Shown piece by piece: positions 8,376 to 42,217 of a stretch of 64,000 bases of DNA. This stretch comes from Candidatus Binatia bacterium (GTDB lineage Bacteria > Desulfobacterota > Binatia > UBA9968). The notes beneath the pieces are model-generated. The model was not told where the DNA came from, did not search any database, and worked only from the letters and a program-made list of their open reading frames with translations. The DNA lies in contig DASYRN010000030.1 in assembly GCA_036004365.1 (NCBI GenBank), positions 705-64,704 of the forward strand. Reading direction: 5' to 3'. Made by a program: the position numbers and the translations under genes. Positions within the stretch are counted from its first letter, which is position 1. Each line of letters begins with the position of its first letter.

Positions 8376-9365
8376 ATGCTCAAAGTGATACCCGTGGAAG
8401 AAGCTGTCGGATTGCCGTTGGCTCACGATATCACGGAGATCGTCCCAGGGAAGCATAAAGGGCCGGCTTTCCGGCGTGGTCATGTGATTCGGCCCGAGGA
8501 TGTTTCGAAGCTGTTGGACATCGGCAAGGCCCACATCTACGTTATGGAGCTGGATAAGGATGAGCTCCATGAGGAGGATGCGGCGCGAAGGCTCGCCAAA
8601 GCAGCCGCGGGGCCGAACATCCATTTGACCGATCCCGTGGAAGGTCGGGTCAATTTGGTTGCTGAAATGGCCGGACTGTTAAAGATCAATGAGACGCTAC
8701 TCAGGCAGTTCAACGCTCTCGGGGATCTGATCCTCGCCACGATCCCGTCGAACCGATACGTCAAAAAGGGAGAGGTTATCGCCGGCACCCGGACGATCCC
8801 GGTGGTTGTTAAAGACGATCTCGTCAAAAGAGCTGAGGCGCTATGCAAACAAGGCGTGATTGTGACGATTGTTCCTATACCTCAACGGCGAGTTCATTTG
8901 ATTGTTACAGGGAGTGAGGTCTATACAGGTAGAATCCAGGATGGATTTGAACCTGTGGTGCGTCGCAAACTCGCTGAAATGGGGACAGAGCTGTCAAGCG
9001 CGAAGCTGGCACCGGACGATCCGGATCAGATCGCCAACTGTATTAAGGATTCTTACCGGACCGGAGTTGATCTTATTCTGGTCAGCGGTGGTATGTCGGT
9101 CGATCCTGATGATCTCACGCCGGAAGGTATTCGACGGAGCGGCGCGCGGGTTGAAAGCCATGGGTTTCCGATTCTACCCGGCTCGATGTTTCTCATGGCC
9201 TATCTCAATCAGACCCCCATCTTGGGGCTGTCTGGCTGTGTCCTGCATGATCCGGTGACTGCTTTCGATCTTCTTCTGCCTCGCTTGCTGGCGGGAGAGA
9301 GAATTTCTCGCTCAGACATTATCTCGATGGGCCACGGTGGGTTGCAGAAAAAACACGATCACTAA
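8376..9365 (+). CDS. Molybdopterin-binding (MoCF_biosynth, MoaB/MoeA-like) domain protein
   Basis: C-terminal LILVSGGMSVDPDDLTPEGI matches the GG-motif of the molybdopterin-binding fold. RBS AGAGGGG upstream. Lies near moaA. Confidence 0.5.
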   Translation: MLKVIPVEEAVGLPLAHDITEIVPGKHKGPAFRRGHVIRPEDVSKLLDIGKAHIYVMELDKDELHEEDAARRLAKAAAGPNIHLTDPVEGRVNLVAEMAGLLKINETLLRQFNALGDLILATIPSNRYVKKGEVIAGTRTIPVVVKDDLVKRAEALCKQGVIVTIVPIPQRRVHLIVTGSEVYTGRIQDGFEPVVRRKLAEMGTELSSAKLAPDDPDQIANCIKDSYRTGVDLILVSGGMSVDPDDLTPEGIRRSGARVESHGFPILPGSMFLMAYLNQTPILGLSGCVLHDPVTAFDLLLPRLLAGERISRSDIISMGHGGLQKKHDH

Positions 9366-9432
9366 AATGATAGAGGATAGAGGATAGAAGATTGAGGATA
9401 GTTGCAAGTTTTGGAGAAAGGAGAGAGCAAAG

Positions 9433-10083
9433 ATGCTGATTCTAAAAAGCCCTCAAGACAGGTGGGATCCTCGCTGGACTGCGCTTTTGGTTGTAGACGT
9501 ACAAAATGATTTTGTGAGTCCCAAGGGGAGTGCGGCGCAGCGGGGCGAAGATGTCACCGCATCGATAGCGATGGTCCCGAGACTCATTCGCCTCATTGAG
9601 GAGGCGCGGCAGGTTTCGTTGCCCGTTGTTTATATCAGGACCACTCACGGCGAGTGGACGGATACTCCTAGTTGGATCTACAGAAAGTCACAAGAAAAGG
9701 TATTAGATACCTGCCGTGAGGGAACGTGGGGCGCTGAGTTTTACGAAGGGATCTCTCCCCTGCCAGATGAACGGGTCGTCATCAAGCACCGCTACAGCGC
9801 GTTTATCAACACGGACCTCAATACCGTTCTTAAGGCGAAGGGAGTCGAAAGCGTCCTCGTCACCGGCGTGGCGACGAACGTCTGCGTCGAGACTACGGCG
9901 AGAGATGCCTACATGTACGATTACTACGTTACGATGGTGGACGACTGCGCGGCCGCTTATGACCCGAAGCTGCACGAGACGACGCTAGAAAATATCCGCC
10001 GCCATTTTGGCCTAGTAGCCTCCTCCGACGAGATTATCCAAAACTGGCAGGGGTTAAAACAAAAGAAGGCGGCAGCGGTTTAG
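9433..10083 (+). CDS. Isochorismatase-family cysteine hydrolase
   Basis: ALLVVDVQNDF ... VLVTGVATNVCVETTARDA (catalytic Cys) matches the isochorismatase fold. Confidence 0.8.
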   Translation: MLILKSPQDRWDPRWTALLVVDVQNDFVSPKGSAAQRGEDVTASIAMVPRLIRLIEEARQVSLPVVYIRTTHGEWTDTPSWIYRKSQEKVLDTCREGTWGAEFYEGISPLPDERVVIKHRYSAFINTDLNTVLKAKGVESVLVTGVATNVCVETTARDAYMYDYYVTMVDDCAAAYDPKLHETTLENIRRHFGLVASSDEIIQNWQGLKQKKAAAV

Positions 10084-10161
10084 TTATGAATTTTAAATTA
10101 TGAATTTTGAATTCTGAGTTTTAAGTCTAATAACTCAACACGCATAACTCAAAAGTTAAAA
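10084..10161. repeat. AT-rich intergenic element: tandem TATGAATTTT(A/G)AATT x2 plus imperfect hairpin GAGTTTTAAG...TTAAAACTA
   Basis: GC about 27 % in a roughly 58 % GC genome. Fills the entire convergent gap between isochorismatase and korB. Related to 33288..33345 and 21818..21844. Confidence 0.6.
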
Positions 10162-11190
10162 CTATTTCATGAGCTCGGCGTTGATCCGGTCGAGCATCTC
10201 GGCGGGCGGTTGTAGGACGTCTTGATCCAGCTCCGCGAGCGGCGTCTCGCAGAGATTCATTTCTTCGGCAAACTCTGCCCGGTTAGGATCGTAATAGATA
10301 AGTCCCGTCAGGAACTTTCCCTCGGCCACGGCCGCGTGGATGGCCTGCATCGCATGCATCCTGCTGGTGGGATCGTAGCTCTTCCCCAGCTTGTGCAGGA
10401 CGATGCGAGATCCGTCGTGCAGCTCGACCGGCTGATCGGTCCCTTCCTTGTAATCGACTTCGATATTCTCGTAATGGGGAATAAAGTCGATGTCGTGAAT
10501 CGGGTCGAGGTGCTCCTTGACATACTTCATGCTCTTGGTCGAGCCTTCGTGGTTGTTGAAAGTCACGCACGGGCTGATCACATCCAGGATCGCGCTTCCC
10601 TTGTGGGCCAGCGCCCCCTGAATCAGAGGCGAAAGTTGCTTGCGATCTCCGGAGAAGCTGCGGGCGACATAGGTGGCGCCGAGGATGATGCCGAGCTCGC
10701 AGATGTCGAGCGCCGGGTTGTCGTTGATCTTTCCCCCTTTCATCACGCTTCCCTTATCCGCAGTAGCTGAGAACTGGCCCTTAGTCAGCCCGTAGACTCC
10801 GTTGTTCTCGACGATATAGGTGATGTTCACGTTGCGCCGCATCATGTGGCAGAAGTTCCCCAGACCGATGGCCGCGGTGTCCCCGTCTCCCGATACCCCG
10901 ATGGGCATCAGCGAATGGTTTGCTATATTGGTGCCGGTTGCCACCGCCGACATCCGTCCGTGAACCGCGTTAAAACCGAAGGATTGGCTGAGAAAATAGG
11001 CTGGAGTTTTAGATGAGCAGCCGATGCCGCTGAGCTTAATAACCTTGCGCGGGTCGATACTGCTTTCAAAAAAGGCCCGCATGACCGAGGCCGAGATGGC
11101 ATCGTGACCGCAGCCACGGCACATGGTCGACGGAGCACCCTCGTAATCCTTCTCTTTGAGGTTTATGCGATTAACTTTTTCTCCTGCCAT
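10162..11190 (-). CDS. korB: 2-oxoacid:ferredoxin oxidoreductase beta subunit (TPP-binding; KorB/OorB-like)
   Basis: CRGCGHD motif and TPP-binding GDGD region. Start taken at the internal MAGEKV ATG with an AAAGGGG RBS. Overlaps the alpha-subunit stop by about 28 nt. Confidence 0.75.
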   Translation of the reverse strand: MAGEKVNRINLKEKDYEGAPSTMCRGCGHDAISASVMRAFFESSIDPRKVIKLSGIGCSSKTPAYFLSQSFGFNAVHGRMSAVATGTNIANHSLMPIGVSGDGDTAAIGLGNFCHMMRRNVNITYIVENNGVYGLTKGQFSATADKGSVMKGGKINDNPALDICELGIILGATYVARSFSGDRKQLSPLIQGALAHKGSAILDVISPCVTFNNHEGSTKSMKYVKEHLDPIHDIDFIPHYENIEVDYKEGTDQPVELHDGSRIVLHKLGKSYDPTSRMHAMQAIHAAVAEGKFLTGLIYYDPNRAEFAEEMNLCETPLAELDQDVLQPPAEMLDRINAELMK

Positions 11191-20347: not shown

Positions 20348-20923
20348 TTACGGTACCTTCCATAGATAGATAAAATGCGTGTGATACCAGCCGCCGTCCA
20401 TTTTTTCCACTTTAATGGGAATCCAGCCGTCGATGCCAAAATCATGGGAGACCACACGGGAGCCGGATCTTAACTGCCGATCAAAGATCGGCCGAAGTTT
20501 GGCGTTGAATTCGGGAAGCATGTACAAGGTCACCACGCTTGCGGGCGAGACGTCGACGGTGAGGGCATCCTGCTCGCGGAACTCTACTAAGTGATCGACT
20601 CCCTCATCCTTTGCCTTTGCCCGAGAGCGCTGGACTAAATCAGGATCGATCTCAACCCCTACCGCCTTAACTCCGTATTTCTTTGCCGCCCTGATGACGA
20701 CCCGCCCGTCGCCACTTCCCAAGTCGTAAAGAACATCTCCCCTTTTGACCTCCGCTAGCTCAAGCATGCGGTCAACCACTTCGGGAGGAGTCGGGACAAA
20801 TGGGACTTCACCCGCAGTCCAAATCGTGGAACAGCCGGCGAATAATAGAAGGGCTAAGACCGTGGTCAGCTTGTAGTTTTCAGTTTCGAGTTTCAGGTTT
20901 CTAGTTTCTGGCACCGAAGTCAT
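20348..20923 (-). CDS. Class I SAM-dependent methyltransferase; putative lipoprotein, N-terminus uncertain
   Basis: Motif I VLYDLGSGDGRVVIRAAKKYG. The predicted 5' end is encoded by a heptamer tandem repeat. Confidence 0.7.
   Translation of the reverse strand: MTSVPETRNLKLETENYKLTTVLALLLFAGCSTIWTAGEVPFVPTPPEVVDRMLELAEVKRGDVLYDLGSGDGRVVIRAAKKYGVKAVGVEIDPDLVQRSRAKAKDEGVDHLVEFREQDALTVDVSPASVVTLYMLPEFNAKLRPIFDRQLRSGSRVVSHDFGIDGWIPIKVEKMDGGWYHTHFIYLWKVP
20875..20911. repeat. Heptamer tandem repeat (AGTTTCN) x5 overlapping the predicted 5' end of the methyltransferase gene
   Basis: AGTTTTC AGTTTCG AGTTTCA GGTTTCT AGTTTCT. Related AGTTTC motifs occur at 40711..40778. Confidence 0.6.
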
Positions 20924-21817: not shown

Positions 21818-21844
21818 TAAATTTTGAGTTGTGAGTGCTGAATC

Positions 21845-22948
21845 TTGATCACGGCTCATGCCGACGTCGTCGGAAGCCTGCTTAGGCCGCCGGAGCTTCT
21901 TGAGGCCCAAGACCAACTCGCGGCCGGGACCATCAGTCCCCAGCAGTTCAAGAGGATCGAAGATCGCGCCGTGGACAGCGCCATCGCCTTGCAGGAAGAA
22001 GTCAACCTCCAAGTCGTGACCGATGGCGAGATGCGCCGGCAGTCTTTTCAAAGCCAGATGACCGCTGCGGTCAGCGGCTTTGGCGAATTCACCCTGGACG
22101 CCTTTCTCTGGGGCCATTGGTACGACGAAGAAGGAATTCACAGAACACCCCGGCCGCGTCGATTAGGCGTCGTCGCCAAGCTCGTCCGCCAGCACTACCT
22201 TTCAGTGGATGAATTCGTCTACCTGAAAACTAAAACCAACCACACAGCTAAAATCACGCTGCCGAGCCCTGGGCTGTGGGTTAACTTCTGGTCTGCCAAA
22301 CATTCGAAGGCCGCTTACGCGACGCTTGATAGTTTTCTTGCCGACATCGTCCAAATCTTACGGGATGAGATCAAAGAATTGATTCGACTCGGTGCCACTT
22401 ACATTCAATTAGACGCGCCTCACTATGGTCTCCTGCTTGACCCCAAGACGCGACGCTTTTATGAAAGGCAGGGCTGGCGCTTGGACCAGTGGCTTTCACT
22501 GGGAGTCGAATTAGACAACGCCGTGATGGAGGGCTTTCCTGGGGTCACGTTCGGCTTTCATGTTTGACGCGGGAATCAAGGCAGCCGGTGGCTGTCCGAA
22601 GGCGGTTACGAACCTGTCAGTCGGCAGCTGTTTCGTAGGGTGAATGCGCAGCGGCTCCTGCTTGAATACGATGATGGCCGCTCTGGCTCGTTTGAGGCGC
22701 TTAAGGATGTACCGGAAGATAAGTTCGTGGTGTTGGGGTTGGTGACGACCAAGAGGGCGCGCTTGGAAAATATGGAGGAACTCAAGCAGAAGGTATCCGA
22801 GGCCGGCCGCTATGTTCCGTTGGAGAGGTTGGGGATCAGCCCCCAGTGCGGCTTTGCCTCCTCTATCATCGGGAACAACATCTCTTTCGACGACCAGCGC
22901 TACAAGCTGAGACTTGTCGTAGACATCGCGCAGCAGATCTGGGGTTGA
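21845..22948 (+). CDS. Cobalamin-independent methionine synthase-like (MetE C-terminal-domain homolog, Meth_synt_2) methyltransferase. It has one in-frame TGA at 22565-22567, at the conserved H-x-C zinc-ligand position. It is therefore either a candidate selenoprotein or a pseudogene.
   Basis: N-terminus VVGSLLRP ... QEEVNLQVVTDGEMRR and C-terminus SPQCGFAS (like NPDCGLKT) match MetE-like proteins. The two ORFs 21845..22567 and 22640..22948 are in the same frame. They are separated only by a single TGA, read as GFHV-TGA-RGN. Confidence 0.5.
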
Positions 22949-28414: not shown

Positions 28415-28894
28415 TCAGTCCAGCAGCTTGATTTGTGTCGGCTCTTCGAGGATCATTTCCAATCCATACTGGGGATGATCTCTAATCTCGCCCGTCAGTT
28501 CAACCTCTTTTCCCTCATAGTGCTTCGGATTAAGTTTGTTTTTTTGAAATCGCTCCACAGCTGAGGCAAAGATCACGCCCGTGAACGAAGAGCTCGAAGG
28601 GCCAAAGTTCAGGAAGTAGGTATCACTCTTCGCCGAGTAGCCAACCCGAAAAATCCTCCCTCGGATCTTGGCGCGACTTCCGGCCAAGGCTTTAATCTTT
28701 TCTACCTCCCTCGCTTCGATGAGAGGAATTTCGAAAGCTCGGGCCGGGGGCGGGGGTGAAGGAGAGAAAGTGACAGGATATCCTTGATGTTCTGGCGGAG
28801 GAACGTTCCAGCGTTGGTAAAAGAGGTGGGAGAGAAAGCCCGCCAAGAAAGCGGCTAGGATCAAAAGGAATCTGCCGAAAGAGATAAGCCTCAT
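28415..28894 (-). CDS. Hypothetical membrane-anchored protein
   Basis: N-terminal TM segment followed by a Pro-rich linker. No recognisable domain. Confidence 0.35.
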   Translation of the reverse strand: MRLISFGRFLLILAAFLAGFLSHLFYQRWNVPPPEHQGYPVTFSPSPPPPARAFEIPLIEAREVEKIKALAGSRAKIRGRIFRVGYSAKSDTYFLNFGPSSSSFTGVIFASAVERFQKNKLNPKHYEGKEVELTGEIRDHPQYGLEMILEEPTQIKLLD

Positions 28895-29445
28895 CCCTTC
28901 TTTTCCCAGAGCCGAAAAAACTCTTTGCGATACGCTTCGGCTAGCGGCGCCGCATCGCGAAAGAAAAGGAGATTTTCGTCATTATAGTTTTCCGCTGCCA
29001 CAGTCCAGTTATAGGACCCTGTGAAAACCACCTTGCGATCGATCACAGCGAATTTCTGGTGCATCAATCCGACCCCCTTTTCCGCTTTCACTGGATGGGC
29101 TCCAGAAATCCGGCGGACCGGAATCCCCTGCTGTTGCAAAAAAAATCCTTTGGAGGGTTCATTGGCGGCGTCGAACTCTTGGTCTAAAATCACCTGCACT
29201 TGGACGCCCCGTTGCTGCGCCTTCACCAAAGCCCGCGCCAGCTCCTCATGGGTGAAAGCGTAGACCGCGACCAGAATCTCCTTTTGGGCTTGAGCAATCT
29301 CTCGAATGATATAGTTCGAGCACTTTCCCAGGGGACTGAAGCAGGCATGAACCACCATGCCTGCCCAACTCTCCGGAAAGACCAGTGCAAAGTGCAAGAT
29401 GCAAAGTGCAAAAGTAAGAGGAATTTTGCATTTTTCAATTTTCAT
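28891..29445 (-). CDS. Phospholipase D / Nuc-like endonuclease family protein (HKD motif), secreted
   Basis: HQKFAVIDRKVVFTGSYNWT is a PLD HxKx4D motif. N-terminal signal peptide. Confidence 0.7.
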   Translation of the reverse strand: MKIEKCKIPLTFALCILHFALVFPESWAGMVVHACFSPLGKCSNYIIREIAQAQKEILVAVYAFTHEELARALVKAQQRGVQVQVILDQEFDAANEPSKGFFLQQQGIPVRRISGAHPVKAEKGVGLMHQKFAVIDRKVVFTGSYNWTVAAENYNDENLLFFRDAAPLAEAYRKEFFRLWEKKG

Positions 29446-29458
29446 TTTGCATTTTGCG
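29385..29458. repeat. Imperfect palindrome built from TGCAAAG/TGCAAAA heptamers, spanning the holA stop and the PLD-like gene start
   Basis: Left arm GTGCAAAGTGCAAGATGCAAAGTGCAAAAG. Right arm TTTTGCATTTTTCAATTTTCATTTTGCATTTTGCG. It encodes the PLD signal peptide and the holA C-terminus. Confidence 0.55.
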
Positions 29459-30793
29459 TTGCGCAGAGCCTCGACACATTTCCAAGATCAGTCGCTCCAT
29501 CAATATGCGGGGAGAGTGACCGGTCGATTTTAGCCGGATATCCGTTTGGTAGATCGAATCCAAGAAGCGCAGCAACTCCTGAGAGGTAAAGTTGTCCGCT
29601 TTTGTAAAGGTCATGTAGTCCCCATACATACTTCGGGTGAGAACCGGCATGCCCTGTTCTGGTATGCTTGCCTGAAACTGCTGATAGCTCATCTGCTTGC
29701 GCCATTTGTGGCGCAGCTCCCCCTCGATCAGCTGGCGCGCCGCCAGCAGTCGCCGCACCTCGCTTGCAATAGTTGCTAGCAGTTTGAGTGGATGCTCTCC
29801 TTGAGACAAAAGCCGCTCCAAATAGCCCAGAGCCCGTACGGAATCGCGCTCGGCGATAGCGCCGGTCAAATCAAAGATCCAGCCTTCTCCATGATCCAAA
29901 AAGGCCTCTTCGACATCCTTCGATTTGATCCATGGATCCTCTCCGACGTAGAGAAGCAACTTCTCCAGCTCTTGGTGAATCGCCCACAGTTCCTCGCCGG
30001 CCCGAGCGAGAAGGATCTCCTTGGCCTGCGATTCGATTTTCTTTCCCGCCTCTTTCAGACGTCGATCAACGAACTCAGCCACCCTTTCACGGCTAATTCT
30101 GCCGGTTCGGTCGCGCTCTAAGGTCAGGTCCAGGACGCCCCCCTTTTCTTCGAAAATCTTATAGAGGCGAGTCCGGCGGTCTAAGTGGGAGGCCGTTATG
30201 AGAAGTACGGCCCAGGGAGGCAACCCTCGTTCCAAGAACTCCGTTAATCTCTTTTCTTCTCCCTTCGAAAAAGCGCCTAAAGTGATTCTGTAGGTGCGGC
30301 AAAATGCCAAGATCTCATCGAGATCTTCTCTGGCTTCCCGACCAGGGTCGTCGAAAAGATCGGCCAACTGGGTCGCGGAAAAAGACCCCTGGAATCCTTC
30401 CCACTGTTCTTGGGTCCATCCTTCGAGACCGAGAAGCTGCGCCAGGAGCCTCGCTGCCTCTTCCTTTCTTCCCTCGCTCCAGAGTTGAAAGATCTTTTCC
30501 GCTAGACCTCCTTTGTGCTCGCTCGAATGAAAATAAGGCGCATTTTCGATAAGGATCGCTTTTGTCCCCGCGAAAAACGGGGGAGTCATGAGCGCCGCTT
30601 CGATCTGGTCCCACGGCGTAGATTGGCCGTTGAATGACTCGAGATTGAATGCTCGGTTTTCAGAGGGCACGAGTTGGTCAACAATGGCCTTGGTTGCGCT
30701 TTGTACTCTGAAGTCATCGCCATGCAGCAGGAGTACGGCAGGCGCCTTTCCACTTCGGATTTCAGAGAGAGCAGTCGCCAGATCTCGCTTCAT
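29435..30793 (-). CDS. holA: DNA polymerase III delta subunit with an about 100-aa insertion
   Basis: N-terminus PAVLLLHGDDFRV and C-terminal delta-subunit helical domain. Start taken at the internal ATG (MKRDLATAL). Confidence 0.65.
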   Translation of the reverse strand: MKRDLATALSEIRSGKAPAVLLLHGDDFRVQSATKAIVDQLVPSENRAFNLESFNGQSTPWDQIEAALMTPPFFAGTKAILIENAPYFHSSEHKGGLAEKIFQLWSEGRKEEAARLLAQLLGLEGWTQEQWEGFQGSFSATQLADLFDDPGREAREDLDEILAFCRTYRITLGAFSKGEEKRLTEFLERGLPPWAVLLITASHLDRRTRLYKIFEEKGGVLDLTLERDRTGRISRERVAEFVDRRLKEAGKKIESQAKEILLARAGEELWAIHQELEKLLLYVGEDPWIKSKDVEEAFLDHGEGWIFDLTGAIAERDSVRALGYLERLLSQGEHPLKLLATIASEVRRLLAARQLIEGELRHKWRKQMSYQQFQASIPEQGMPVLTRSMYGDYMTFTKADNFTSQELLRFLDSIYQTDIRLKSTGHSPRILMERLILEMCRGSAQRKMQNEN

Positions 30794-30862
30794 GGAATTG
30801 TCGCGCTGGGCGCCAGCGATCAGCAATCAGTGAATGTCTGGGTGAGAGCCGTAACCTCATAG

Positions 30863-32342: not shown

Positions 32343-33305
32343 ATGCGCTTTCTGACCTTTTTACGAAAGAATCAGAGCCGCCTGGGGTTGGTGGGGCCGG
32401 GGGACGAGATCATCGACTTGGCGGAGCTGAACCGGCGCTATCTCAGAGGGGGCTCGGCGCCCTATCTCAGCAGCATGCAGGCTTTTATCGAGGCGGGTGG
32501 CAAGGCACTTAGCCTGGCAAAAAAAGCCTCCCGGTATGTAGCCGGGAAAGACGAACAGGTTTTGAGAAAGCTTCGGCAGGCCGGAGTCTTGTTGAAACTC
32601 AATCAAGTCAAAGTCCTTTCCCCTATTCCTTGGCCGAGAAAGAATGTCGTCCTTCTTGGAGTGAACTACAAGGAACACATTGAAGAGGGCGCAAGAGCAC
32701 GAGCCCTGGAATTGAAATATCCTGAAGCGCCGGTATTTTTCACCAAACCGGCCACCTCCGTGATTGGTCAAATGGGAAAAGTCATCCATCATAAGGCGAC
32801 CGAGCGCCTCGACTACGAAATCGAGTTGGCGGTGATCGTGGGCAAAAAAGGCAGGGACATACCCAAGGAGAAGATCTACGATTACATCTTTGGCTATACG
32901 ATCTGTCTGGATATGACCGCTCGCGATCTGCAGCGTAAGCACGGCCAGTGGTTCAAGGGGAAATCGCTCGACACTTATTGTCCGATGGGACCTTGGATCG
33001 TTCACAAGAGCGCCATCCCAGATCCTCACAAGTTGCGTCTCATATGTCGGGTGAACGGACAGGTCATGCAGGATGACAACACGGGGAACATGATCTTCGA
33101 CATTCCAACGACGATCGAGGCGCTCTCCAGCGGCATGACCCTCGAGCCCGGGGAAATCATCAGCACCGGCACTCCCTCGGGCGTCGGATTTGCTCGCGTG
33201 CCGCCGTTTTTTCTTAAGCCCGGTGATAAAGTCGAGGGAGACATCGAGGGGATCGGAGTCTTGCAGGTTGAGATAGCCGCCCCTAAAAATAGTTTTGAGT
33301 CATGA
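32343..33305 (+). CDS. Fumarylacetoacetate hydrolase (FAH) family protein
   Basis: FAH-fold motifs (IFGYTICLDMTARDLQ ... EPGEIISTGTPSGVG). Confidence 0.85.
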   Translation: MRFLTFLRKNQSRLGLVGPGDEIIDLAELNRRYLRGGSAPYLSSMQAFIEAGGKALSLAKKASRYVAGKDEQVLRKLRQAGVLLKLNQVKVLSPIPWPRKNVVLLGVNYKEHIEEGARARALELKYPEAPVFFTKPATSVIGQMGKVIHHKATERLDYEIELAVIVGKKGRDIPKEKIYDYIFGYTICLDMTARDLQRKHGQWFKGKSLDTYCPMGPWIVHKSAIPDPHKLRLICRVNGQVMQDDNTGNMIFDIPTTIEALSSGMTLEPGEIISTGTPSGVGFARVPPFFLKPGDKVEGDIEGIGVLQVEIAAPKNSFES

Positions 33306-33345
33306 GTTCTTAGTCTTTTATAAGTCTAACACTCAAAACTAGAAG
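33288..33345. repeat. AT-rich hairpin element (11-bp perfect inverted repeat TAGTTTTGAGT ... ACTCAAAACTA)
   Basis: Overlaps the last codons of the FAH gene and fills the gap to the next gene. Shares TAAGTCTAA(C/T)ACTCAA with the 10084..10161 element. Confidence 0.6.
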
Positions 33346-33352
33346 TCGTTGT

Positions 33353-34195
33353 ATGCGAGTCAGGCCCGCTGCTGTGGCAGGTTCATTCTATCCCGCGGAG
33401 CCTAATGAACTCCGAGAATCGTTGCACGAGTGTTTCACCTCGCATCGTTTAGGCCCACAAGGTAAAAGATTCCCTTCTTCGTCGCTTCTCGGAGGAATAG
33501 TTCCCCACGCCGGATATGTTTACTCCGGTCCCTGCGCCGCGCACTTCTATTCATGCCTGAACCTCGACGCACGGTGCGTCGTGTTGCTGGGAGTGAATCA
33601 CGGCGGCGGAGGGGCGCGGGCGGCGCTGAGTCCGCTGGATCATTGGGAGACCCCTCTAGGCAAGGTACAAGTAGATCAAGACTTGGCAAGAGAACTTAAG
33701 CATCGGAGCGACCTTTTAGAAGAAGACGAGGAGCCTCATCTTCGAGAGCATAGCATTGAGGTTCAGCTGCCGTTCCTCCAAAGCCTCTTCAGTGACTTTA
33801 CTTTTTTACCGCTATCGCTGTCCTATCTGTCGGATAGGGAATGCGAAGATCTCGGACTGTCGGTCGCTCGGGTGTATGAAGCGGCGACGGCGGCGGGAAA
33901 AAAGACCGTTATCGTCGCCAGCAGCGATCTCAGCCATTATCTGTCCCCTAAGGAAACCGAAAGGCTGGACCAAATGGCTTTGGAACCTGTATTGGCTCTC
34001 GATCCGTCAGGGCTTTTGAAGACCGTGGAGGAGGAGAATATCAGTATGTGCGGGGTAATCCCGGCGGCCGTTTTCCTGTTTGCGGCTAAGGCTCTCGGCG
34101 CCAAACAGGCGCAACTGCTCAAGCACTGCCATTCCGGCGACGCGGTCCCCATGAGAGAAGTCGTGGGCTACGCCAGCGTGGCGGTCGAACTATAA
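33353..34195 (+). CDS. AmmeMemoRadiSam system protein B (MEMO1 family)
   Basis: AGSFYP ... HAGYVYSG ... SSDLSHY MEMO1 motifs. Confidence 0.8.
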   Translation: MRVRPAAVAGSFYPAEPNELRESLHECFTSHRLGPQGKRFPSSSLLGGIVPHAGYVYSGPCAAHFYSCLNLDARCVVLLGVNHGGGGARAALSPLDHWETPLGKVQVDQDLARELKHRSDLLEEDEEPHLREHSIEVQLPFLQSLFSDFTFLPLSLSYLSDRECEDLGLSVARVYEAATAAGKKTVIVASSDLSHYLSPKETERLDQMALEPVLALDPSGLLKTVEEENISMCGVIPAAVFLFAAKALGAKQAQLLKHCHSGDAVPMREVVGYASVAVEL

Positions 34196-34329
34196 GCTCT
34201 CTGCGGCTAGGTCGAAGACGGCTCAAAGCCTTGGACCTTAAGAATTTGAAATTCCAGGGGACTTGAGGCAGGCAACCTCGCTTCAACGAAGTTTGACTTG
34301 CCGTCGCCCATTTGTTAGTTCTCTCTTTA

Positions 34330-34426
34330 AGCTAGGGGTGTTCGCCTGGCGGACTGAGAACCTGAGGCGGAAGTTATCGGGTAACCCTCTGAACCTGACC
34401 CGGATAGTGCCGGCGTAGGGAAGCGT
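34330..34426 (+). ncRNA. TPP (thiamine pyrophosphate, THI-box) riboswitch
   Basis: Conserved GGGGTG ... CTGAGA ... ACCC ... GAACCTGACCCGGATAGTGCCGGCGTAGGGAA. Followed by the hairpin ACCGTATTCC...GGATACGGT plus TTTTTT (about 34470-34517) as a terminator expression platform, directly upstream of thiS. Confidence 0.85.
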
Positions 34427-34523
34427 GAGAGTCGCGGTTCCTTGTCGTTTCGCGACGGGACGAGCTTAAGACCGTATTCCCTGGCCACTGGATGTGGTCA
34501 AGTCGGATACGGTTTTTTAATGC

Positions 34524-34724
34524 ATGATAGTCCAGATCAACGGTGAAAAGAGAGAGATCCAAGCAGCTCTGAGCGTTGCGCAACTCCTCGAACAGCTGGG
34601 GATTCGACCCGGCAGAGTCGTTGTCGAGCTTAACCGAGATATCGTTTCCCGGGATGCTTTTCAGGATAAATTTTTGAAGGAAGGGGACACCGTGGAGATC
34701 GTTCATTTTGTCGGGGGAGGATAA
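34524..34724 (+). CDS. thiS: Sulfur carrier protein ThiS
   Basis: 66 aa ending in GG ([10 protein letters not shown]). Immediately precedes thiG. Confidence 0.8.
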
Positions 34725-34725
34725 A

Positions 34726-35499
34726 ATGGAAGATGTTTTTAAGCTGGCGGAAAGGAGCTACAAATCGCGCCTGATCGTCGGGACCGGAAAATACAAAGAT
34801 TTCGGTGAGACGCAAAAAGCCATCGAGGCCTCGGGAGCCGAGATTGTTACGGTAGCAGTGCGCAGGGTCAACATTACGGATCCCAACAAAGAAAATCTTC
34901 TCGATTACATCGACCCCAAAAGATATAGGATCCTGCCCAACACGGCGGGCTGCTACACCGCGGACGAGGCGGTTCGCACCTGCCGCCTCGCTCGCGAGGC
35001 CGGGGTAGGAAACATGGTAAAGCTTGAGGTCATTGGTGACGAAAGAACCCTCTTTCCCGACATAGCAGCCACTCTTGACGCAGCGCGAATCCTTATAAAG
35101 GAAGGTTTCGTTGTCCTTCCCTATATCACTGATGATCCGGTGGCGGCAAAAAAACTTGAGCAGATGGGATGCGCCGCCGTGATGCCGCTGGCGGCTCCCA
35201 TCGGCTCCGGTTTGGGGATTCGAAATCCGTACAATATTCGCATAATTCTAGAACACGCCAGAGTGCCAGTCATTGTCGATGCGGGCGTGGGAACTGCTTC
35301 CGACGCGTCCATTGCAATGGAGATGGGCTGCGACGGTGTCCTGATGAATACAGCCATCGCCGGCGCCAAGGATCCGATCCTGATGGCCGAGGCCATGCGG
35401 CTTGCGGTGGACGCAGGAAGAAAGGCTTTTCTGGCCGGGCGCGTTCCTAAAAAGCTCTACGCTATGGCCTCCAGTCCGCTTGAGGGCTTTTTAGGCTAG
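34726..35499 (+). CDS. thiG: Thiazole synthase
   Basis: LIVGTGKY ... typical ThiG. RBS GGGGGAGGA. Confidence 0.9.
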
Positions 35500-35505
35500 C
35501 TTCGT

Positions 35506-36150
35506 TTGCGATTGCGCTCTCCCCATTTTGACCTCTACCTTGTAACCGATCGCGCTCAAACAGGCGGAAGGGATCTCCTTTGGATCCTTGAGCAGGCCTT
35601 GGAAGCCGGCGTGACAGCCGTTCAGCTGAGGGAGAAGGATCTAAGCGGCCGGGAACTTCTTATCCTGGCTGAAAAGGCAAAAAAACTCTGCCAGCGCTAT
35701 CGTACCAGCCTGTTCATCAATGACCGCATTGATGTCGCATTGGAAGTCGATGCGGAAGGAGTGCAGCTCGGAACCTCTTCCATGCCGATTGAGGCTGCGC
35801 GACGACTCCTTGGAGAAGAAAAGCTGATCGGCGTTTCTACCCATTCGGTCAGAGAGGCCGAGGCCGCCGAACAGGCAGGCGCGGACTTTATCCTTTTTGG
35901 ACCGATCTATTTTACTCCCTCCAAGGCTGTGTACGGGGAACCCCAAGGGCTTGGTCCTCTAAAAAACGTGGTAGAAAAAGTCTCTCTTCCTGTTTATGCT
36001 ATCGGCGGAATAAGAGAGGAGAATGCAGCCGAGGTCAAGGAAACCGGTATCAGAGGGGTTGCTCTGATTTCTGCCGTGCTGGGTGCAGCGGAGCCTGGGG
36101 AAGCAACCCGTAGGATTCTCGCCGCCGTACGGAATGAAGCCGATGAGTGA
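35506..36150 (+). CDS. thiE: Thiamine-phosphate synthase
   Basis: TMP-TENI fold motifs (VQLREKD ... IGVSTHS ... ADFILFGP). Confidence 0.85.
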   Translation: MRLRSPHFDLYLVTDRAQTGGRDLLWILEQALEAGVTAVQLREKDLSGRELLILAEKAKKLCQRYRTSLFINDRIDVALEVDAEGVQLGTSSMPIEAARRLLGEEKLIGVSTHSVREAEAAEQAGADFILFGPIYFTPSKAVYGEPQGLGPLKNVVEKVSLPVYAIGGIREENAAEVKETGIRGVALISAVLGAAEPGEATRRILAAVRNEADE

Positions 36151-36448: not shown

Positions 36449-36524
<76 letters not shown>

Positions 36525-40710: not shown

Positions 40711-40778
40711 CCCCAGTTTCTGGTCTCTAGTTTCCAGTCCTAACTAGCAACGAGAAATTTGGAACTAGAAACAAGATA
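40711..40778. repeat. AT-rich AGTTTC-containing element with imperfect inverted repeat (CTAGTTTCC ... GGAACTAGAAAC) between glcD and glcF
   Basis: Occupies the whole glcD-glcF intergenic spacer. Confidence 0.5.
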
Positions 40779-40780
40779 TT

Positions 40781-42217
40781 TTAGATCCACAGACCGGCAG
40801 GAATCTTCGCTGGCTCCCTGCGGATCTCGCCACAGGTCGCCGGAGTCGGAAAGAGCTTCGCCGGGTTGAAGCGGCTTTCGGGATCGAAAGCGCGCCGCAC
40901 ACGCATCATGGCCTCCAGATCTTCACTGTTAAATAGCAATCCGATGTAGGCCTTTTTCTCGATGCCGATGCCGTGTTCGCCGGTGATGCTGCCACCAAGC
41001 TCGATACATGCCTTTACGATGAGTCCGCCGGCTTCGATGACGCGATCCAGCTCACCCGGCGTGCGCATGTCGAAAAGGATGTTGGGGTGCAGATTGCCGT
41101 CGCCTGCGTGAAAGACATTGGCCACCTGCAGGCTGTAGCGTTGGCTGATTTCCGCGATTCGCCTCATAATCTCAGGCAACCGGCTGCGCGGCACAACTCC
41201 ATCCTGGACATAATAATTGGGCGCGAGCAGACCCAGAGCGCCAAACGCTCCTTTGCGACCTTTCCATAAGAGCTGGCGCTCGGCTTCGTCCTTGGCAAGT
41301 CTAACCTCGCGTGCGCGGTTTTTGGTGCAGATGGACTCAACGAGCGCCATCGCTTGTTCGGTGTGCTCGCGCACGCCCTCTATCTCGACAAGCAAGACTG
41401 CGGCTGCGTCCCTCGGGTAGCCGCACGGAGCACCTCTCTCCACCGCCTCGATCGTCAGTCGATCCATCATTTCGAGGGCGGCGGGAATGATCCCCGCGGC
41501 AGTGATATCGACGACGGTTTGCGTCGCCCGATCCGTTTGGTCAAAGATCGCCAGCAGCGTGCGCACCGATTCGCGCGTTCTCATCAGGCGCACCGCCGCT
41601 TTGGTGACGATCCCCATCGTCCCCTCGGAGCCGACAAAGACACCACAGAGGTCGTAGCCTGGCGAGTCAGGAACCATGCCGCCGAGCCAGACGACTTGGC
41701 CATCATCAAGGACCACCTCGATGCCGAGGACATGATTCGTGGTCACACCGTAGGCGAGCGTGTGAGGGCCGCCGGAATTGTTCGCTATATTACCACCAAT
41801 AGAACAAGCGGCTTGGCTGCTTGGGTCGGGCGCATAGAAGAAGCCGTCCTTTAGTAGGCTCTTGGTCACATCGAGGTTGATCACACCTGGCTCGACGATG
41901 GCGAGGCTGTTTTTTAGATCGATTTCGAGGATGCGGTTGAGACGCGCCAACGATAGGACGATGCCGCCTTCGGCCGGAACCGCGCCGCCAGCAAGTCCAG
42001 TCCCTGAGCCGCGAGGAACGATGGGGACGTTGGCTCGCCGCGCCGCTTTGATCACGGCGGACACCTGCTCGACATCGCCGGGCAGCACGACGATCTCCGG
42101 CATGACCTGGAAGATCGAGCCGTCTTGCTCGTAGACGATGACATCTTCCTTCTCAATGAGCATGTAATGATCGCCCACGATTCCACGCAGCTCCTGGATG
42201 AGGGCATCGCGGCTCAT
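40781..42217 (-). CDS. glcD: Glycolate oxidase subunit GlcD (FAD-linked oxidase)
   Basis: FAD-binding PCMH domain plus FAD-oxidase C-terminal domain (HAGDGNLHPN). Confidence 0.85.
   Translation of the reverse strand: MSRDALIQELRGIVGDHYMLIEKEDVIVYEQDGSIFQVMPEIVVLPGDVEQVSAVIKAARRANVPIVPRGSGTGLAGGAVPAEGGIVLSLARLNRILEIDLKNSLAIVEPGVINLDVTKSLLKDGFFYAPDPSSQAACSIGGNIANNSGGPHTLAYGVTTNHVLGIEVVLDDGQVVWLGGMVPDSPGYDLCGVFVGSEGTMGIVTKAAVRLMRTRESVRTLLAIFDQTDRATQTVVDITAAGIIPAALEMMDRLTIEAVERGAPCGYPRDAAAVLLVEIEGVREHTEQAMALVESICTKNRAREVRLAKDEAERQLLWKGRKGAFGALGLLAPNYYVQDGVVPRSRLPEIMRRIAEISQRYSLQVANVFHAGDGNLHPNILFDMRTPGELDRVIEAGGLIVKACIELGGSITGEHGIGIEKKAYIGLLFNSEDLEAMMRVRRAFDPESRFNPAKLFPTPATCGEIRREPAKIPAGLWI

Follow-up and report, generated by a model that had tools for sequence, protein, structure and literature searches.

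Introduction

Heptanucleotides are the most abundant class of long simple sequence repeat (SSR) in many bacteria, and polymerase slippage with a 7-nt footprint has been proposed to generate them (Mrazek 2007, as summarized in PMC4679880). The heptamer arrays of Xanthomonas and Nostoc are intergenic, keep the same gene neighbors while varying in length and sequence, and are in some cases inverted in the gaps between convergent genes (PMC4692102). In cyanobacteria, the 7-bp short tandemly repeated repetitive (STRR) sequences form hairpins between cistrons, for example between hupS and hupL, and have been proposed to act in transcript stability, translational coupling or termination, none of which has been demonstrated (PMC2670836). 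More than 30 years after STRRs were described, the origin and function of heptamer repeats are still debated. Jackman and Mulligan reportedly observed in 1995 that, between related strains, intergenic sequences diverge while structure is retained. Here, we analyze a 64-kb stretch of DNA (the window) from a Candidatus Binatia bacterium metagenome-assembled genome (MAG; GCA_036004365.1, contig DASYRN010000030.1, positions 705-64,704 of the forward strand), and show that three AT-rich sites in its intergenic DNA, at 10084-10161, 33290-33341 and 21818-21844, are members of a broader set of degenerate heptanucleotide arrays. We consider it probable that these sites are slippage-born, STRR-like heptamer hairpin arrays, left by a process that operates across one Candidatus Binatia subclade.

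Like the STRRs of Calothrix, Nostoc and Anabaena, the Binatia repeats are short tandem 7-bp arrays with several unit families in one genome, and they are intergenic and often able to form hairpins between cistrons. Unlike STRRs, they are found in a Binatia (Binatota) host, to which Candidatus Binatia MAGs with 88-89% amino-acid identity are closest, they are short (3-7 units) and degenerate, and their units (TGAGTTT, NAGTTTC, AATGCAA, GAGGATN) are AT-rich, so that they stand out compositionally in a host of 54% GC. The consensus STRR units are CCCCAGT, TTGGTCA and CAACAGT. With at least about three tandem units, an excess at period 7, a bias toward non-coding DNA and several unit families, the Binatia arrays are heptanucleotide SSRs of STRR-like type; they fall outside STRRs in the strict sense, which are defined by heterocystous hosts and STRR1-3 units.

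Two further systems invite comparison. The GGGAATC and GGGGAYT repeats of Xanthomonas and Nostoc share with the Binatia arrays an over-representation in intergenic DNA, a preference for about four units, inversion in some convergent gaps, constant gene neighbors and the lack of a detected link to gene function, but are G-rich and form G-quadruplexes, of which the AT-rich Binatia units are incapable, and an inverted partner is frequent in Binatia (Rehm et al. 2015, PMC4692102). In the TAACTGA direct repeats of marine Beggiatoaceae, one unit dominates and inversion is almost absent (1 indirect arrangement in 170 sets), whereas the Binatia arrays have many unit types and frequent inverted pairs (MacGregor 2015, PMC4679880). 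With heptameric long SSRs in general, the Binatia arrays have in common that polymerase slippage is the proposed cause (Mrazek et al. 2007, as summarized in PMC4679880). The kind of repeat is thus already known from cyanobacteria and Xanthomonas; the Binatia lineage is new for it, and nothing here is categorically new. Searching the literature for heptamer or tandem repeats in Binatia, we found nothing relevant.

Three AT-rich spacers carry related heptamer arrays

Site 1 fills the entire convergent gap at 10084-10161 (22% GC) between an isochorismatase-family gene (9433-10083, plus strand; TAG stop at 10081-10083) and the gene for the beta subunit of a 2-oxoacid:ferredoxin oxidoreductase (OFOR; 10162-11190, minus strand; stop at 10162-10164). 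Its left arm (10084-10128, plus strand), detected by Tandem Repeats Finder at period 7/14, by our period scan and as direct repeat family D1, consists of the degenerate heptamers TGAATTT, TAAATTA, TGAATTT, TGAATTC, TGAGTTT and TAAGTCT, and the isochorismatase stop itself falls in a unit, TTAGTTA, directly before the arm. The right arm (10127-10164, minus strand) was recovered as inverted repeat I1, and as I2 and I5 in shifted registers; from the OFOR beta stop, the minus strand reads TAGTTTT, AACTTTT, GAGTTAT, GCGTGTT and GAGTTAT. I1 has 35-nt arms with 71% complementarity, and pairing is also possible in several registers offset by 7 nt.

Site 2 (33290-33341, plus strand; 32% GC) lies between a fumarylacetoacetate-hydrolase-family (FAH) gene and a Memo-like gene, and is a hairpin in which a perfect 11-bp outer stem (TAGTTTTGAGT at 33290-33300, ACTCAAAACTA at 33331-33341) encloses a decayed array with the units TGAGTCA, TGAGTTC and TTAGTCT. 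The last FAH codons and the stop (33303-33305) are inside the site, the stop between the two arms. Since the FAH proteins of relatives align only up to residue 314-318 of the window protein's 320, the array has remodeled the FAH C-terminus; in the window, the terminal codons and stop (33282-33305) are supplied by the left arm.

Site 3 is the 27-nt spacer at 21818-21844 (33% GC) between a second isochorismatase gene and a MetE-like open reading frame (ORF) with a TTG start. Its array (21822-21844, plus strand) comprises the units TGAGTTG, TGAGTGC and TGAATCT, reaches the TTG start and has no inverted arm. Site 1 therefore holds 6-7 heptamer units and sites 2 and 3 hold three degenerate units each. 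The MetE-like (Meth_synt_2) gene next to site 3 is itself split into ORFs at 21845-22567 and 22640-22948, which cover profile positions 5-177 and 243-323 and are separated by a 72-nt gap; the split may reflect a pseudogene, a frameshift or an error of assembly.

A first-pass annotation of the window, made from the sequence alone, had noted these three locations as related AT-rich elements, and their placement is borne out in each case: site 1 spans the whole gap between the two convergent stops, the perfect 11-bp inverted repeat brackets the FAH stop, and site 3 is the spacer between the isochorismatase-like and MetE-like genes. The sharp compositional contrast, given there as about 25-30% GC, is also real at 22%, 32% and 33% against 54% for the window. 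The three copies have a common core of about 26 nt, over which they are about 65-80% alike. Aligned with arrays of the same unit type from three relatives, L084 and L095 (FAH-Memo spacer) and L006 (isochorismatase-OFOR beta gap), they share 15 invariant columns with the consensus AATGAATTTTGAATTnTGAGTTTTGAATCTAATTC.

The resemblance exceeds what AT-rich composition would produce. The motif TTTTGAGT is not enriched across the window as a whole (4 matches against 2.2 expected, a count reached in 22 of 100 shuffles), but the two-unit motif TGAGTNNTGAGT, allowing up to one mismatch, has 10 matches against 2.35 expected, a number equaled in none of 100 shuffles, and eight of the ten are inside the three sites. 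When the composition of each spacer is shuffled separately, the observed 8 matches to TGAGTNNTGAGT compare with a mean of 0.38 (P<0.001), their presence in three gaps has P=0.006, and TTTTGAGT occurs 3 times against 0.23 (P=0.002). Because the motif is above AT-rich expectation and further copies exist in the three relatives named above, the original observation stands.

Heptamer arrays of several unit types occur in the window

We scanned for arrays by autocorrelation, requiring at least 16 matches in 21 comparisons, and also ran Tandem Repeats Finder. Five arrays have period 7 and four have period 14, and none was found at periods 4, 5, 8 or 10-13; composition-matched local shuffles give about 0.05 arrays per period, and period 7 is the sole non-coding repeat period in excess. 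The unit families of the window are TGAGTNN/TGAATTT (three loci), NAGTTTC (two), AGTGCAA (one) and GAGGATA (one). Neither the 7-nt periodicity nor the arrays of other units figured in the first-pass account, which suggested a possibly genome-specific GAGTTTT family: the family is real, lineage-specific, AT-rich, hairpin-prone and located in spacers, but it is one of several period-7 unit types.

The arrays beyond the three sites have 4-5 units each. A single-armed GAGGATA array of 4.7 units (9366-9402, plus strand) lies in the spacer between a MoCF-domain gene and the isochorismatase gene of site 1. Decayed inverted NAGTTTC and GAAACTN arrays (40712-40781, minus strand) lie between co-directional genes for a FAD-oxidase and an Fe-S subunit, which are glycolate-oxidase-like. 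Five NAGTTTC units at 20874-20911 (minus strand; GAAACTN in the gene sense) are within the N-terminal extension of a methyltransferase lipoprotein. In this part of the window (20874-20923), the ORF has no other N-terminal extension available than MTSVPETRNLKLETENYKLTTVLALLLFAGC; in L021, L022 and L072, the array is absent and the N-terminus is short and conventional, MKTFLRSLLGLYLLAVLNAC.

Inverted arrays also occupy 29383-29464 (minus strand), with four AGTGCAA units at 29383-29413 and five ATTTTGC units at 29420-29464, where two minus-strand genes, holA (29435-30826) and a PLD-like gene (28891-29445), overlap. This AATGCAA/TTTGCAC array spans the holA stop and encodes the start codon and the whole signal peptide of the PLD-like protein, MKIEKCKIPLTFALCILHFALVFPESWAG, whose Lys-rich n-region comes from the A-rich arm and whose hydrophobic core comes from the T-rich arm. 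This array-encoded signal peptide is kept in L087 and L091, and array-free relatives have ordinary, unrelated signal peptides at this N-terminus.

Arrays are restricted to one Binatia subclade

A search of species-representative genomes with the OFOR alpha subunit gave 79 loci, the nearest at 88-89% amino-acid identity and labeled Candidatus Binatia or, in older records, Deltaproteobacteria or Syntrophobacteraceae. The same strain is present in three JGI metagenome contigs (L001-L003), and an FAH-protein scan of metagenomes added 80 further loci, the source of the orthologous FAH loci discussed below. In a comparative set of 2.05 Mb, comprising the window and relatives, 56 arrays have period 7, against 5, 4, 9, 2, 6 and 9 at periods 4, 5, 8, 10, 11 and 13. 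The 56 arrays have a mean GC of 38% and about 30 canonical unit types. They avoid gene interiors: nine lie deep within open frames of at least 150 aa, compared with 68% of random segments, although several overlap ORF termini or a signal-peptide region, which qualifies the non-coding bias. An inverted partner is present within 70 nt of 23 of the 56 arrays and of none in a reversed-sequence control, and single-arm arrays are common.

All of these arrays are confined to relatives with an OFOR alpha subunit at least 75% identical to that of the window. Density in this group is 2-3 arrays per 100 kb, and 7.8 per 100 kb in the window; none was detected in 475 kb of the 60-75% group, which comprises more distant, higher-GC Binatia, or in the Chloroflexota matches. 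Identical unit types are seen at more than one locus and in more than one genome. Unit type is only partly congruent with the FAH tree, a single-protein neighbor-joining tree without support values, which for that reason does not tell divergence in place apart from replacement. Inverted arrays of a GTTCAA type occur in L014 and L017 (at the spacer designated A and at spacer B, the isochorismatase-OFOR beta gap) and in L018 (spacer A). The best pairing registers of L014 are 9 nt apart rather than 7, so some repeat hairpins of the clade are not strictly heptameric.

Arrays persist at orthologous spacers while their units change

The FAH-Memo spacer illustrates both persistence and turnover. Distant relatives (72-76% FAH identity) have a spacer of 15-35 nt with an ordinary Shine-Dalgarno sequence, and in most relatives at 79-88% identity the spacer is an inverted heptamer array of 60-125 nt; the exception is L092 (80% identity), which has a plain 33-nt spacer. 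The unit is TGAATTT/TGAGTTT in L084 and L095, as in the window, CGTTAYT in L083, L094 and L085, TTTTGGA in L086 and L088, NAGTTTC in L089, L090 and L093, and AATGCAA in L091 and L107. Several of these arrays extend to the ATG, and the Shine-Dalgarno sequence is gone. Most of the unit types have a GAGT/ACTC core in common, which fits divergence in place.

For the MoCF-isochorismatase spacer (window 9366-9432), we folded 15 relatives with an inverted heptamer array, chosen by eye. The best of them form full hairpins of the type (GAGGATN)4-loop-(NATCCTC)4, and in some lineages GAGAATG/GATAATT or CGCAGAT replaces the GAGGATN unit; the window has retained one arm only. Array orientation at an orthologous locus varies between relatives.

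At the isochorismatase-OFOR beta gap, the array of site 1 occupies the place of a canonical bidirectional terminator. Of 39 relatives, 22 have a GC-rich stem flanked by A and T runs there, which is bidirectional in 18 cases; textbook examples have the form AAAAAAGCCCGGTAGG...CCTACCGGGCTTTTTT. Heptamer-type gaps are found only in the window, L006, L014, L016 and L017, and none of these five contains a canonical terminator, the two states being mutually exclusive. In a stringent scan, no intergenic gap of the window contained a canonical GC-rich stem followed by a T-run. Other relatives have different DNA at this position. In L019 and L027, the gap is 253-254 nt long and has an insert of ~170 nt with the hairpin-like sequence gtcattc(t/c)g...g(a/c)gaag, a small element distinct in kind from the heptamer arrays, and in the close relatives L009 and L012 it contains 1.7-2.0 kb of extra DNA, apparently inserted genes. 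The gap thus seems to be a recurrent insertion point.

Array hairpins range from near-perfect to decayed

In the window, 29383-29464 folds at -20.6 kcal/mol (z -2.38), the minus strand of site 1 at -17.6 kcal/mol (z -2.76; -13 kcal/mol on the plus strand) and site 2 at -14.7 kcal/mol (z -3.07). Site 3 has a z of -2.4, and the fold at 40712-40781 is not significant (z -0.59). The best hairpins of relatives reach -25 to -45 kcal/mol with z of -4 to -8.5, and many others are decayed; the window copies are among the decayed arrays. Because repeat units cannot be aligned unambiguously, RNAalifold on an alignment of the spacer A hairpin recovered only the six innermost pairs, and we used per-sequence folding and register profiles in place of alignment covariation. 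In these profiles, complementarity peaks repeat at each 7 nt of register. Registers shifted by 7 nt pair nearly as well as the best register, which means that unit-specific variants are not clearly mirrored between arms; templated (snap-back) copying of one arm from the other is therefore unsupported.

Array length also varies by whole units. Orthologous arrays of different species differ by a 7-nt indel between L033 and L040/L038, and by 14 nt between L086 and L088.

Discussion

We propose that the arrays grow and shrink through slipped-strand mispairing in a 7-nt register, a cause suggested by the 7-nt and 14-nt differences between orthologous arrays. Hairpins that pair in several registers, the scarcity of arrays in gene interiors and the gradation from near-perfect to decayed copies are likewise the outcome expected if slippage creates arrays that then persist and decay. 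Such a process would fill weakly constrained DNA with arrays of 7-nt period, whether in intergenic spacers, at gene termini or in signal-peptide coding regions. The TGAGTNN/TGAATTT unit of the three sites can be read as a rotation of TTTTGAG, with an inverted arm at two of the three. An inverted copy of an array would allow hairpin pairing in several registers 7 nt apart, so that the potential to pair would outlast the gain or loss of a single unit. An array would stay in its spacer for a long time even as its units drift and are homogenized, and would decay once slippage stops, the stage that the window copies may have reached. When transcribed, inverted arrays would place stem-loops right after a stop and right before the next start, or between convergent 3' ends, where they may serve as stabilizing, pausing or coupling hairpins. 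A role of the RNA stem-loops in 3'-end protection, pausing or coupling is possible, and is suggested by the array that stands in for a terminator at site 1 and by hairpins located exactly between a stop and the next start.

Several observations weigh against this account. At the level of RNA, the stems are AT-rich and weak and lack a U-tract, some arrays are single-armed and unfolded (those at 9366-9402 and 20874-20911 do not fold at all), several intrude into coding termini, and the window copies are degraded. For the window copies, we consider a largely neutral by-product with occasional co-option likelier than a function under selection. At the level of origin, data from the genome itself come from a single 64-kb window, and the window and L001-L003, which represent the same strain, show no copy-number polymorphism, indicating that slippage is not fast here. 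Slippage alone also leaves unexplained why both arms share a unit type after that type has changed, why a few unit types keep reappearing at various loci and in various genomes, and why arrays are restricted to this subclade.

We weighed several alternative explanations. Selected terminators or insulators, in which AT-rich repeat hairpins substitute for canonical GC-rich stems, would account for the mutual exclusion of heptamer arrays and canonical terminators in the gap of site 1 and for the absence of canonical terminator motifs from all intergenic gaps of the window. The first-pass annotation had raised this possibility, and a terminator-like position is real for site 1 alone, where 22 of the 39 relatives have an intrinsic terminator and where, as with intrinsic terminators, a stem-loop can form on both strands. 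But no T-run follows either arm of site 1, whose stems are of modest stability at 22% GC, and stems that are AT-rich and have no U-tract do not qualify as intrinsic terminators. Co-directional, probably co-transcribed genes, 15-35 nt apart in relatives, flank sites 2 and 3, which are inside apparent operons, as well as the arrays beginning at 9366, 29383 and 40712; some arrays are single-armed and unfolded, and others overlap start codons or a signal-peptide coding region. We consider this explanation unlikely. Copies of a mobile mini-element of the miniature inverted-repeat transposable element (MITE) or repetitive extragenic palindromic (REP/REPIN) type, mobilized by a transposase encoded elsewhere in the genome, would explain why one spacer has different unit types in related genomes, why the same unit types occupy different spacers, and why unit types are partly scattered over the FAH tree. 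The perfect 11-nt terminal inverted repeats of site 2 (TAGTTTTGAGT and ACTCAAAACTA), the similar ends of site 1 and the young-looking, near-perfect long hairpins of some relatives also point this way. Like REP elements, bacterial interspersed mosaic elements (BIMEs) and REPINs of proteobacteria, the arrays are short hairpin-forming repeats in co-directional or convergent spacers. REP elements of E. coli are transcribed within mRNAs and can stabilize upstream cistrons. Yet a REP is a single imperfect palindrome of 20-40 nt, belonging to a conserved family of hundreds of similar copies mobilized by a REP-associated tyrosine transposase (RAYT), whereas the Binatia elements vary in length, come in many unit types and are internally periodic at 7 nt. 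The 64 kb examined hold three copies of tandem structure, only about 65-80% identical over some 26 nt, with neither a REP palindrome nor near-identical dispersed copies, and the REP-like label of the first-pass annotation is not supported. Length changes in 7-nt steps, about 30 canonical unit types among 56 arrays, the commonness of single arms and the GAGT/ACTC core of most FAH-Memo unit types, which fits divergence in place, are also hard to reconcile with mobility. The flanks of site 2 (CTAAAAA and GAAGTCG) show no target-site duplication, which together with terminal inverted repeats would mark a MITE, and the window ORFs that we scanned yielded neither a transposase nor a Y1/RAYT domain. 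A mobile origin therefore strikes us as decidedly improbable.

Binding of a DNA- or RNA-binding regulator to heptad arrays as multimeric sites would suit direct repeats that immediately precede a start codon, as they do at site 3, at 9366-9402 and, where no Shine-Dalgarno sequence remains, in several of the FAH-Memo spacers. TTTTGAG is one base from the ctx heptad TTTTGAT, and a role of this kind has been proposed for the TAACTGA repeats (PMC4679880). Set against this are about 30 unit sequences, beyond recognition by one regulator, orientation that differs between relatives at one locus, unit types that switch between close relatives, and flanking genes that are functionally unrelated, and we regard the proposal as very unlikely. 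In its narrower form, a single-heptad regulator site such as ctx TTTTGAT or Beggiatoaceae TAACTGA, it is hard to square with the number of unit types and the variable orientation. As a general explanation we also discarded a three-frame stop cassette, in which heptamers containing TGA, TAG or TAA would put a stop into each frame; stop-containing units are not enriched, numbering 29 against 39 expected from permuted units. The idea that the sites resemble one another through AT-rich composition alone draws on the lack of significant window-wide enrichment of TTTTGAGT, but the composition-preserving spacer shuffles, the enrichment of period 7 alone among non-coding periods and the presence of homologous arrays at identical spacers in relatives exclude chance.

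A more speculative extension is that an active process, independent of unit sequence, might build self-complementary arrays in 7-nt register in one Binatia subclade, with products that are repeatedly co-opted. We think this improbable on present evidence. If true, the process could stem from a polymerase property or from a dedicated enzyme, perhaps together with template switching in which one arm is copied into the other. Co-option would then include the replacement of intrinsic terminators, the replacement of Shine-Dalgarno spacers in operons by a hairpin that brings stop and start codons together, and the supply of a signal peptide, with the A-rich arm as Lys-rich n-region and the T-rich arm as hydrophobic core.

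The Binatia clade is an independent, non-cyanobacterial case of heptamer arrays with useful comparative contrasts. A given spacer may be empty or may contain either a canonical terminator or a heptamer hairpin, the latter with any of several unit types; arrays reach start codons bereft of a Shine-Dalgarno sequence; and in one case an inverted array doubles as the coding sequence of a conserved signal peptide. With these contrasts, slippage, hairpin function and co-option become amenable to comparative genomics and, in the soils and sediments of origin, to metatranscriptomics. For annotation, a practical consequence is that gene callers stretch or shorten ORFs at arrays, examples being the C-terminus of FAH, the N-terminus of the methyltransferase and the overlap of holA with the PLD-like gene.

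Other features of the window

Rfam 15 covariance models had no match at E<=1 within 9300-10300 or 33150-33450, and over the whole window at gathering score only tRNA and thiamine pyrophosphate (TPP) riboswitch models matched. The single tRNA gene is at 36449-36521 (plus strand). The TPP riboswitch (71.7 bits; 34324-34438, plus strand) lies upstream of thiG (34708-35499) and thiE (35506-36150), and a 110-aa minus-strand ORF that overlaps it (34374-34706) is probably spurious.

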